A stretch of 39,148 nucleotides of DNA. Source: a virus. Its lineage: Duplodnaviria > Heunggongvirae > Uroviricota > Caudoviricetes. Location: the IMG/VR virus record IMGVR_UViG_2534681836_000019, one strand, 5' to 3'. Under the pieces are notes generated by a model. It did not search any database. It was not told the origin of the DNA and worked only from the letters and a program-made list of their open reading frames with translations. Below, piece by piece: positions 24,613-26,168 of the stretch (positions are counted from its first letter, which is position 1; every line of letters starts with the position of its first letter). The position numbers and the translations under genes are program-made.

Positions 24613-25110
24613 CTACATTTGATGCTTTTTATCTCTTAAAGATTCATAGATCTGTTGACAAGTCACTCCTGCGATGTAGCGTTCGTCAGCAATTTCAGCA
24701 TAAAGCTGAGCTTCTGCTGCAATATCTCCGAGCATGTTGGTGAGCATTCCTTCGGCGGTTTTGGTTGTTTTGCCTCTGACGGCAGCGGCAAGATCTGCGG
24801 TATGCTTCGCTGCGTCAAGGCGTATGGCATATTTTTTTGCTTCGGCACGCAACTGGTTAACACTATCAGACAGATAAGCAGCCCTGGCAGAAATTTCAGC
24901 AGATTTCTGTTGTGCATCTTTAACAGCCTCATCACGGGCTATAGTTCGCCCCAGTTCAATTATTCGAGCAGCAAATTGAGCATTTACCTCTTGTGATAAT
25001 GCGGCAGCATCACGTTCCGCCCATTTTTTTTGCCATCCTCTGTCGCTCCAGACATTTCCGACGATAAATCCTGACAACACGAGAAAAATCACCATGAATA
25101 TCTGATTCAC
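24613..25110 (-). CDS. Rz: i-spanin Rz
   Basis: 165-aa ORF with N-terminal transmembrane segment and coiled-coil-rich body; start overlaps the endolysin stop (ATGA). Confidence 0.85.
24663..24917 (-). CDS. Rz1: o-spanin Rz1 lipoprotein, fully embedded in Rz in another frame (start may be 24935)
   Basis: Embedded ORF with signal peptide ending in lipobox LTSC, followed by a Pro-rich mature region. Confidence 0.7.
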
Positions 25111-25640
25111 TGTTCTATCCCCCAGCAGGTTAATGCGCTCTCCTGGTCACGACGAATAACCTGACCGTAACAGTTATTTGAACGAATGCGGCAATCGCGT
25201 CCGCCATCCTTAATCCACCAGCGAATCGCTTCGCATGCACCTTTACGATCACCAGCATTCAGCCGCTTATAAAACGTCGACGGGAAACACTTACCGGGGC
25301 CAATGTTATAGGGACAAAATGACGCGATACCCGCTTTTTGTGGTTCGGTCAGTGGTACTTTAATATTGCGCTCCACCCATGCCAGCGCCTTATCACGCTC
25401 AATGGCGTTGACCTGGTCGCATTTTTCCTTCGACAGTTTCATATTGGGAAAAACGGTTTTTCCATCCACCACTGTGGCACCCCGACAGATGGTCCATATG
25501 CCAGAACCATCGCGGTATGCCATTGTGTGGTTACCTTCTTTTTCGTCCAGAAACTGGTCAAGTATCTGAGGAGCAGATGCGCCAGCACCAATCAGCGCCA
25601 GAACGGCAGCCGACAGGCCGTATCTGATTTTTGTGTTCAT
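25107..25640 (-). CDS. R: SAR endolysin (T4-lysozyme-like, GH24)
   Basis: 177-aa ORF; hydrophobic Gly/Ala-rich N-terminus ([18 protein letters not shown]) and E-x8-D-x5-T catalytic spacing ([16 protein letters not shown]). Confidence 0.9.
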
Positions 25641-25948
25641 ATATATTTATGATGAGGACGCTCGTGCTTATTGGCAGGATTTTCAATCTTAAAGGAGTAC
25701 TGATGCTGCAGATAAGACTCAACTTTTTCTGACAATTTTTCTGCTACTTCCAGGAAGACTTGCCGGACGCTCCTTCTGGCTGCTGCCTCATAAAACTCCA
25801 GCGCAGCTCCTTCAACACGGTCCATGGCGACATCCAGGTCAAAAATTTCACCGTCAAAGCGTTCCTTGTCCTGTAAGGCTACAGTTACCGTAACTTTATT
25901 CTCAAAATTACGGACTCCTTTCACAACCAGTTCATAGTCTTGAGTCAT
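25637..25948 (-). CDS. ydfR: YdfR-like protein (103 aa), inserted between holin and endolysin
   Basis: ORF tightly coupled between holin stop and endolysin start; same position and size as ydfR in Qin. Confidence 0.6.
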   Translation of the reverse strand: MTQDYELVVKGVRNFENKVTVTVALQDKERFDGEIFDLDVAMDRVEGAALEFYEAAARRSVRQVFLEVAEKLSEKVESYLQHQYSFKIENPANKHERPHHKYI

Positions 25949-25952
25949 TGGA

Positions 25953-26168
25953 TTACTCTCCTCTCGCAGCCTTACGCCTGTCTTCTTTAATCTTGAAATA
26001 AAGATTTGTCAGATACGTCAGCAGGCCAAAAACCAGGCTACCCAGCACACCGATTGCAGCCCACTGTGACGGAGTTACTTTATCGAGTAACTGTAATGCC
26101 CAGAAACCAGCATTACCCGCCGATGTGCCATAGGCAACACCTGTTGTTAACTTATCCATTGATTTCAT
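25953..26168 (-). CDS. S: Pinholin (phage 21 S-like class II holin) with dual-start motif MKSMDK; longest ORF starts at 26246
   Basis: [71 protein letters not shown]: two transmembrane segments, charged C-terminus, Met1/Met4 dual start. Confidence 0.9.

Follow-up and report, generated by a model that had tools for sequence, protein, structure and literature searches.

The holin of phage 21 (S21) belongs to the Pfam family 'P21 holin S', opens with the dual-start motif MKSMDK and has two transmembrane domains (TMDs). Pinholins of this kind are reported to form channels of ~2 nm, as opposed to the micron-scale holes of canonical holins, and their dual start and their partnership with signal-anchor-release (SAR) endolysins have been described (PMC9636201). 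A pinholin with a SAR endolysin is predicted for 99% of Shiga toxin (Stx) phages (PMC8136144). In Escherichia coli K-12, the cryptic prophage Qin carries a lysis cluster with the gene order essQ-ydfR-rrrQ-rzpQ/rzoQ. The present study characterised positions 24613-26168 of the IMG/VR virus record IMGVR_UViG_2534681836_000019 (Caudoviricetes), a stretch of 39,148 nucleotides (nt) referred to throughout as the window. This region is probably the lysis cassette in the late operon of a lambdoid prophage of Qin type that uses the pinholin/SAR-endolysin route, in which the product of ydfR would be an accessory protein that binds a host factor; the lysis part of this explanation, drawn from homology and motifs, is very likely correct.

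Five open reading frames (ORFs), all on the minus strand, were identified within the region from the ORF listing and from reading the sequence, and lie where a preliminary description, made from the sequence alone, had placed them. The genes and the segments delimited within them are as follows:

25953..26168, minus strand: pinholin gene of the S21 family (essQ, annotated essD), 71 amino acids (aa), PF04971
25637..25948, minus strand: ydfR, 103 aa, DUF1327 (PF07041)
25733..25948, minus strand: conserved core of ydfR, codons 1-72, delimited by alignment, AlphaFold2 (AF2) model, limit of DNA homology and ratio of non-synonymous to synonymous substitution rates (dN/dS)
25107..25640, minus strand: endolysin gene (rrrQ), 177 aa, T4-lysozyme fold, PF00959
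25569..25622, minus strand: SAR-like N-terminal segment of the endolysin, residues 7-24, recognised by composition and alignment to the phage 21 endolysin (R21)
24613..25110, minus strand: inner-membrane spanin (i-spanin) gene Rz (rzpQ), 165 aa, GTG start, PF10721, phrog_312
24663..24917, minus strand: outer-membrane spanin (o-spanin) gene Rz1 (rzoQ-like), 84-aa precursor, phrog_11621, lipobox

Over 2 kb, the region is 100% identical in DNA to many E. coli O26:H11 genomes, and at least 80% of it is carried by 2081 of the 5426 complete E. coli genomes, or ~40%. RefSeq annotates the O26:H11 copy as essD / ydfR / rrrQ / rzpQ, with cspB, ynfU and cspI as flanking genes, and an antiterminator gene (ydfT/Q; 28072-28824, minus strand) lies upstream of the cassette. 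The holin, endolysin and Rz of K-12 W3110 have RefSeq protein accessions identical to those of the window. Given this DNA identity and these shared accessions, the cassette is the already known Qin-type lysis cluster of E. coli, and it is very probably functional. Family searches, motifs and annotated relatives support the overall reading of the preliminary description (dual-start pinholin, SAR-type endolysin, embedded Rz/Rz1 and an extra YdfR). Nothing in the cassette as such is new; the residual value of the locus lies in ydfR, for which the analysis provides added description and no new kind of system.

The holin matches PF04971 ('Bacteriophage P21 holin S') over residues 5-67 (E 4.4e-34; 116.7 bits against a cut-off of 26), as well as phrog_9876 and phrog_20 ('holin'). 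Its MKSMDK start, already noticed in the preliminary description, is seen in the sequence and matches the motif described in PMC9636201: Met1 gives a protein of 71 aa and Met4 (start 26159) one of 68 aa, with Lys2, an extra N-terminal positive charge, confined to the longer form. We infer that both start codons are used, giving a 68-aa pinholin and a 71-aa antiholin. The first TMD (approximately residues 8-28) is weakly hydrophobic, with 57% Gly, Ala, Ser or Thr (G/A/S/T) and a mean Kyte-Doolittle hydropathy of 0.57, and the second (residues 36-58; mean 1.50) presents G40xxxS44xxxG48, a G-xxx-S-xxx-G face known for the second TMD of S21. The C-terminal tail is basic and predicted to be cytoplasmic. 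RNA folding of the 5' region of the holin gene showed no unusual structure (z -0.76). The 933W-type holins of the S21 family that adjoin ydfR in four other loci (L004, L005, L100 and L101; ~2281-2496) begin with MYQMEK, which has two Met codons and, unlike MKSMDK, a longer form without an added basic residue; this start raises the question whether the longer product serves as antiholin likewise.

The endolysin matches PF00959 (E 1e-23) and phrog_7, and has the catalytic triad E35/D44/T50 (E-x8-D-x5-T). Its homology to R21 extends over the full protein, with the same triad numbering; the alignment obtained in a PDB sequence search (3hde, E 2e-16; 3hdf, E 3e-15) begins at residue 9 and takes in the SAR segment of R21. 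Residues 7-24 contain 61% G/A/S/T and have a mean hydropathy of 1.4, and both this composition and the R21 alignment agree with the hydrophobic, Gly/Ala-rich N-terminus of SAR type that had been read from the sequence. The same residues could be taken for an ordinary cleavable Sec signal peptide, which would release an active periplasmic enzyme controlled in some other way: K4 and R6 make up a basic n-region, ~12 residues a hydrophobic core, and A-G-A|S at residues 19-22 a possible signal-peptidase site that fits the -3/-1 rule and counts against the SAR assignment. A cleaved signal peptide is nevertheless improbable, since the R21 alignment covers the SAR segment and the triad numbering is shared, the composition of the segment is that given above, the partner is a pinholin with its ~2 nm channels and not a former of micron-scale holes (PMC9636201), and the endolysins of Stx phages are predicted to be of SAR type (PMC8136144). 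Homology to R21 and pairing with a pinholin thus favour a probable SAR-type endolysin. Eight Cys residues (52, 74, 109, 118, 136, 150, 157 and 172) all lie outside the SAR segment, which points to as many as four periplasmic disulfides and to the absence of a switch of the P1 Lyz kind based on a SAR cysteine.

Rz has an N-terminal TMD (residues 3-21; mean hydropathy 2.04) and matches PF10721 (DUF2514; E 6e-38) and phrog_312 ('Rz-like spanin'; E 5e-56). Rz1 matches phrog_11621 ('Rz-like spanin'; E 1.7e-8) and lies wholly inside Rz in the +1 frame, at 0.39-0.90 of the Rz length, the usual position of embedded o-spanins according to PMC6139136, from which the lipobox consensus and the spanin rules were also taken. 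Its lipobox, LTSC with Cys23, fits the consensus [LVI][ASTVI][GAS]C; coordinates, frame and PHROG match all agree with the out-of-frame, lipobox-bearing Rz1 proposed beforehand. Mature Rz1 would comprise 62 residues, including 9 Pro and, in addition to the lipidated Cys, 2 more, and Rz has a single Cys (GVTCQQ), these Cys residues being predicted to be available for intermolecular disulfides. Rz1 is left unannotated in the RefSeq record of O26:H11 strain 11368 and in the W3110 stretch, although its ORF, lipobox and PHROG match are clear.

The term 'phage-21-type' used for the cassette in the preliminary description therefore holds for the holin and for the mechanism, but less well for the other components. 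The endolysin, a relative of R21 of the 933W/Qin type, forms a separate lineage (177 aa with eight Cys, versus 165 aa; E 2e-16), and the i-spanin is of the DUF2514 type, whereas the Rz of phage 434, which has an endolysin of R21 length, is annotated as lambda-like. Qin/933W-type is the better name.

In the cassette, ydfR lies between the holin and endolysin genes (S and R, respectively). The holin/ydfR junction reads TAA-TCCA-ATG, with a gap of 4 nt, whereas ydfR and R share an ATGA overlap and R and Rz a GTGA overlap; of the overlaps with both neighbours claimed for the 103-aa ORF, only the one with the endolysin gene was confirmed. Two elements at these junctions proved informative:

25956..25963, minus strand: Shine-Dalgarno sequence for ydfR (GAGGAGAG), within the last holin codons, recognised from the sequence and by junction comparison
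25641..25656, minus strand: AU-rich leader of R without a Shine-Dalgarno sequence (TCATCATAAATATAT before ATG), recognised by leader comparison

The cassettes of 933W and other Stx phages share with the window the 177-aa type of endolysin and also the 3' end of S (GGAGAG-TAA-NNNN-ATG). In those of the 933W type without ydfR, the good Shine-Dalgarno and start context that precede ydfR in the window serve R instead, with the same junction geometry. In a 933W-type Stx1 phage R lies 4 nt after S, whereas in the window ydfR stands there and R is preceded by another leader, one that lacks a Shine-Dalgarno sequence. ydfR thus occupies the slot after the holin that R holds in cassettes lacking ydfR. 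The 933W-type, 434 and cdtI cassettes all pass directly from S to R, and in phages 434 and cdtI, with their R21-length endolysin (498 nt), the S stop and the R start overlap. The upstream junction hardly varies among the ydfR loci examined: ydfR starts 4 nt after the stop of an S21-type holin in all 88 of the 88 fetched loci, and 3-4 nt after it in seven annotated phages (Tritos, mEp460, BP-4795, Stx2-86, Evi, PhiR12_2 and 2H10). Downstream, the spacing between ydfR and R differs among the annotated phages, from an overlap up to ~450 nt, sometimes with a reverse-strand ORF between them, and the two start codons are up to ~1.6 kb apart in the fetched loci. All ydfR-carrying cassettes, and only these, have the conserved, AU-rich R leader without Shine-Dalgarno, with the consensus C(C/A)T(G/C)ATAAATAT(CC/AT)ATGA. 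In the window variant, two base changes abolish an in-frame stop, so that the ydfR frame runs through this leader to the ATGA overlap and a tail predicted to be disordered is added to YdfR.

Such junctions could also mean that the ydfR ORF acts mainly in cis, with re-initiation at ATGA on an endolysin gene devoid of a Shine-Dalgarno sequence setting the S:R ratio and the protein being dispensable. The overlap and the missing Shine-Dalgarno are both present, the tail of YdfR is encoded by the conserved R leader and predicted to be disordered, and many frameshifts occur in this tail among database variants. However, in most other ydfR cassettes R lies 50-450 nt past the ydfR stop with the same leader, and the reverse-strand ORF at times intervenes, which excludes coupling as a general feature; moreover, a mere spacer would not need the purifying selection observed on residues 1-72. 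A mainly cis-acting ydfR is thus rather unlikely. The geometry also affects how the gene can be probed: deletion of 25637-25948 with a reading of lysis timing, as previously proposed, would be polar on endolysin translation, and a change in timing would be ambiguous because the stop/start coupling is lost and R is brought next to the strong Shine-Dalgarno of S.

The gene does not have the features of a moron with its own promoter and terminator: it begins 4 nt after the holin stop, overlaps R, and the promoter/terminator scan gave no promoter- or terminator-like site within 24613-26168. The promoter scan returned 4 sites versus 8.8 in shuffled sequences, i.e., fewer than after shuffling, and Rfam had no match inside the cassette. 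By its position, ydfR would be an accessory gene expressed as part of the late operon. A terminator-like element lies 3' of cspB and 5' of the holin gene, and is presumably read through by Q-modified late transcription:

26621..26640, minus strand: intrinsic-terminator-like hairpin (AAACCCGCTCAGGCGGGTTT then a T-run), from the terminator scan

YdfR matches PF07041 (DUF1327; E 1.1e-53) over the full model (1-93) and is identical to K-12 YdfR at 102 of 103 residues, the sole difference being residue 103, in agreement with the extra YdfR-like gene recognised in the preliminary description. The lack of a known lysis function, also remarked there, was borne out: the PHROG families matched are all of unknown function, and the only functional work found in the literature concerns a link with RNase E. 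The protein is without TMD or signal peptide, predicted to be cytoplasmic and acidic (isoelectric point, pI, 5.6; 4.6 for the core alone). In the family alignment Y5, L7, Y53, E54 and A57 are invariant, the C-termini are mosaic with total lengths of 72 to 287 aa, and DNA homology between ydfR variants stops at ~nt 206. Structure prediction, suggested earlier for the 103-aa protein, gave an AF2 model with a mean predicted local distance difference test (pLDDT) score of 81, with antiparallel strands at residues 5-14, 18-27 and 34-43 and a long helix at 50-84; blocks over residues 11-70 score 88-96, while residues 87-103 fall below 50 and are modelled as disordered. We propose that the functional unit is a 72-residue β3-α domain. 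Many database variants of ~129 aa (P0016, P0017, P0021, P0025, P0037 and P0038) share this core and have frameshifts between approximately residues 73 and 96, from where they continue in a different frame across the start of the endolysin gene; one cluster of this kind comprises 96 sequences. Because the variants shift frame at various points there, the C-terminal tail appears to be under little constraint.

Searches beyond the family were negative. Exhaustive phmmer and profile searches with YdfR recovered only DUF1327 proteins, Pfam found only DUF1327 in the variants with long C-termini, PDB sequence searches with YdfR alone and with the family profile gave no credible match (best E 0.62 and 1.2), and Foldseek of the model against BFVD gave no match below E 0.001. 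No sequence or fold tie to phage proteins that target RNase E turned up in these PDB and BFVD searches. The model does not correspond to a double-stranded RNA-binding domain, with its α-β-β-β-α fold and basic RNA-contacting surfaces. A metagenomic repeat protein of 3128 aa (P0135), aligned in six stretches to residues 6-62 of YdfR (E 2.7e-11, 32% identity), was set aside as a relative; the similarity is probably a repeat-inflated chance match to a beta-rich repeat.

ydfR was found in 3647 of the 5426 complete E. coli genomes, i.e., two thirds of them, with the full-length 103-aa type in 1789, and in 100 phage records, all from Escherichia or Stx phages. It is present in Stx1a, Stx2c and some Stx2a phages, always between pinholin and endolysin. 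DUF1327 is otherwise narrow, with 57 representatives among 1.84 billion proteins, and the profile search collected 301 proteins, all DUF1327 and essentially all from Escherichia or Shigella. In a survey of one genome per species, ydfR occurred in these two genera plus two contigs of metagenome-assembled genomes labelled Veillonella and Bacillota, which are taken to be mis-binned because both carry an Escherichia-type cassette (holin 100% and 89% identical). The dN/dS ratio was computed by the Nei-Gojobori method on ydfR codons 1-72, between lineages whose synonymous sites approach or have reached saturation, and amounted to 0.15-0.45 for ydfR versus 0.02-0.18 for the holin and 0.04-0.12 for the endolysin in the same phage pairs. 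ydfR is therefore a real, constrained gene, but one that evolves several times faster than the lysis genes (about 3-5x in dN/dS). Its occurrence in genomes and phage records and the purifying selection acting on it show the 103-aa ORF to be conserved, one of the two points on which the preliminary description had made its account depend; the other, translation, is predicted from the good Shine-Dalgarno sequence and from a start context that serves the endolysin in 933W-type cassettes.

These data also bear on whether ydfR is a decaying passenger devoid of function. The narrowness of the family, the mosaic and often frameshifted C-termini and the near absence of an effect upon overexpression in K-12 (PMC13232886) would suit this reading, yet dN/dS is well below 1 across lineages with saturated synonymous sites, the ORF is intact in the plaque-forming isolates Tritos, mEp460, BP-4795 and Stx2-86, and the context of its start codon is conserved. 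A functionless ydfR is therefore highly improbable.

Outside the lysis cassette, two distant DUF1327 homologues (76 aa, 31-32% identity; precomputed DUF1327 hit) were found in lambda-like tail modules of uncultured phages (L094, 511-741; L095, 4001-4231; L096, 3788-4018), one between M- and L-type tail genes and the other between L- and K-type genes. Reciprocal tblastn from one of them recovered E. coli YdfR genes. The homologue between L- and K-type genes adjoins an ORF of 182 aa or 117 aa on the reverse strand, of unknown function; PADLOC gave no match at E up to 0.1 for this ORF, for YdfR or for the two homologues. The YdfR domain is therefore a mobile accessory module of late operons, not intrinsically tied to lysis genes. 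In phage Evi, a 933W-type holin is combined with a window-like YdfR, from which it follows that holin and YdfR types reassort; strict co-evolution of the two proteins was rejected on this ground.

The constant neighbourhood with the holin gene is an argument for YdfR being a cytoplasmic, pinholin-specific regulator of lysis timing, a soluble antiholin or pro-holin comparable to T4 RIII or P1 LydB that would bind the C-tail or the N-terminus of the holin. The 3-4 nt spacing after an S21-type holin stop in the 88 loci and the seven phage loci persists despite saturated synonymous sites between YdfR lineages, a pairing between the acidic domain (pI 4.6) and the basic holin tail is conceivable, and a genetic screen cited in PMC13232886 ties ydfR to envelope integrity. 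On the other hand, approximately three quarters of the phage records with an S21 holin are without ydfR (100 versus 438), the distant homologues in tail modules have no holin nearby, holin and YdfR types reassort in Evi, and the PDB and structure searches recovered no sequence or fold match to known antiholins. The adjacency itself is explicable by a single insertion into a conserved junction followed by recombination through the conserved 3' end of the holin gene. We regard a holin regulator as unlikely, although it deserves more weight than a gene acting in cis or a passenger. More broadly, YdfR is probably not a structural part of the lysis machinery, because of the 438 versus 100 records, the cassettes in which S is followed directly by R, the missing TMD and signal peptide, the homologues in tail modules and the reassortment in Evi.

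A role on a host factor is the preferred reading for YdfR. A search of the literature on ydfR, DUF1327, essQ and rrrQ found a single functional work, on the interaction with RNase E (PMC13232886; 2026), in which a two-hybrid screen baited with RNase G (Rng) yielded residues 1-72 of K-12 YdfR three times. The 1-72 clones and full-length YdfR were positive with RNase E constructs including the catalytic domain, and Strep-YdfR co-purified Rne(1-598) together with DNase-resistant nucleic acid; overexpression altered few transcripts and did not slow growth, and the authors did not consider the lysis context (PMC13232886). The interacting fragment coincides with the conserved core delimited here, which makes it the best lead available. 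We tentatively suggest, at less than even probability, that YdfR is a cytoplasmic accessory protein, expressed late and directed at a host factor, with RNase E as the only candidate. A more specific form, in which the 72-residue core docks onto the catalytic half of RNase E or onto RNA bound to it and tunes the decay of late/lysis transcripts, is doubtful as it stands. If true, docking would thereby adjust lysis timing or yield, adjacency to the pinholin gene would let the YdfR dose track holin translation, and interchangeable C-terminal extensions would be fused to the core.

Several points weigh against the host-factor role. The RNase E link comes from overexpression, two-hybrid and pull-down experiments (PMC13232886), YdfR had almost no effect on the transcriptome, and, according to the authors, the RNA might have been carried by a contaminant (PMC13232886). 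With a pI of 4.6-5.8 the domain is acidic, an unusual property in a protein that binds RNA directly, and the strict adjacency to S21-type holins in Escherichia fits a holin-linked role equally well. Against the lysis part of the explanation, no lysis experiment on this cassette type was found in the searchable literature.

Taken together, these elements outline the following sequence of events. After Q-dependent read-through, the S21-family gene would yield the 68-aa pinholin and the 71-aa antiholin from its two starts, while Sec would export the endolysin, whose N-terminal segment, rich in Gly and Ala, would keep it inactive in the inner membrane. Triggering of the pinholin would collapse the proton-motive force and free the endolysin, after which Rz/Rz1 would disrupt the outer membrane. 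ydfR would act as a soluble, acidic, late-expressed accessory at the S-R junction, using the Shine-Dalgarno that serves R elsewhere, with R left with its leader lacking one and, in the window variant, tied to ydfR by the ATGA stop/start overlap. The 72-residue domain may bind a cytoplasmic host factor late in infection, the catalytic half of RNase E being the only reported partner, and the variable C-termini would be add-ons.

The flanks of the cassette hold further recognisable elements. Two full-length cspA-type thermoregulator elements (Rfam RF01766; 162 and 113 bits) bracket it at 26906-27298 and 24011-24396, both on the minus strand, and are those of cspB and cspI. PMC13232886 mentions that the ydfR cluster is up-regulated under cold stress, which cold-induced cspB transcription passing the terminator at 26640-26621 could explain. 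Between the cspB terminator and the holin gene, the opposite strand encodes the 56-aa, zinc-ribbon-like (CxxC...CxxC) protein ynfU (26388-26558, plus strand), with a promoter-like site 5' of it (26301-26330, plus strand) and a weaker one facing the holin gene (26322-26295, minus strand). Farther away, a full-length match to the sok antitoxin RNA (RF01794, 133 bits; 33912-34069, minus strand) sits within an annotated partial ISEsa1 transposase pseudogene (33027-34097), ~3 kb from hokD (30702-30857), and may represent a second hok/sok remnant or a mis-annotated stretch.

Among known systems, the cassette is closest to that of K-12 Qin, with which it shares gene order, the cspB/ynfU and cspI flanks and both the ATGA and GTGA overlaps, with essentially no difference inside the cassette beyond the single residue of YdfR. 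Unlike K-12 Qin, the prophage of the O26-type genome additionally retains a full head and tail module. The isolated phage Tritos shares the gene order of the window and has a 100% identical YdfR, whereas the YdfR variant of BP-4795 and of several Stx1a and Stx2c phages shows 47% identity and has different C-termini. The lysis mechanism expected is that of phage 21, in which depolarisation frees a membrane-tethered endolysin. For YdfR the comparison is with another group of phage proteins, as T4 Srd, T7 gp0.7 and phiKZ Dip all act on the RNase E of their hosts. These are small cytoplasmic proteins, and K-12 YdfR(1-72) is likewise reported to bind the catalytic half of RNase E (PMC13232886); unlike them, YdfR is the product of a late gene of a temperate phage.

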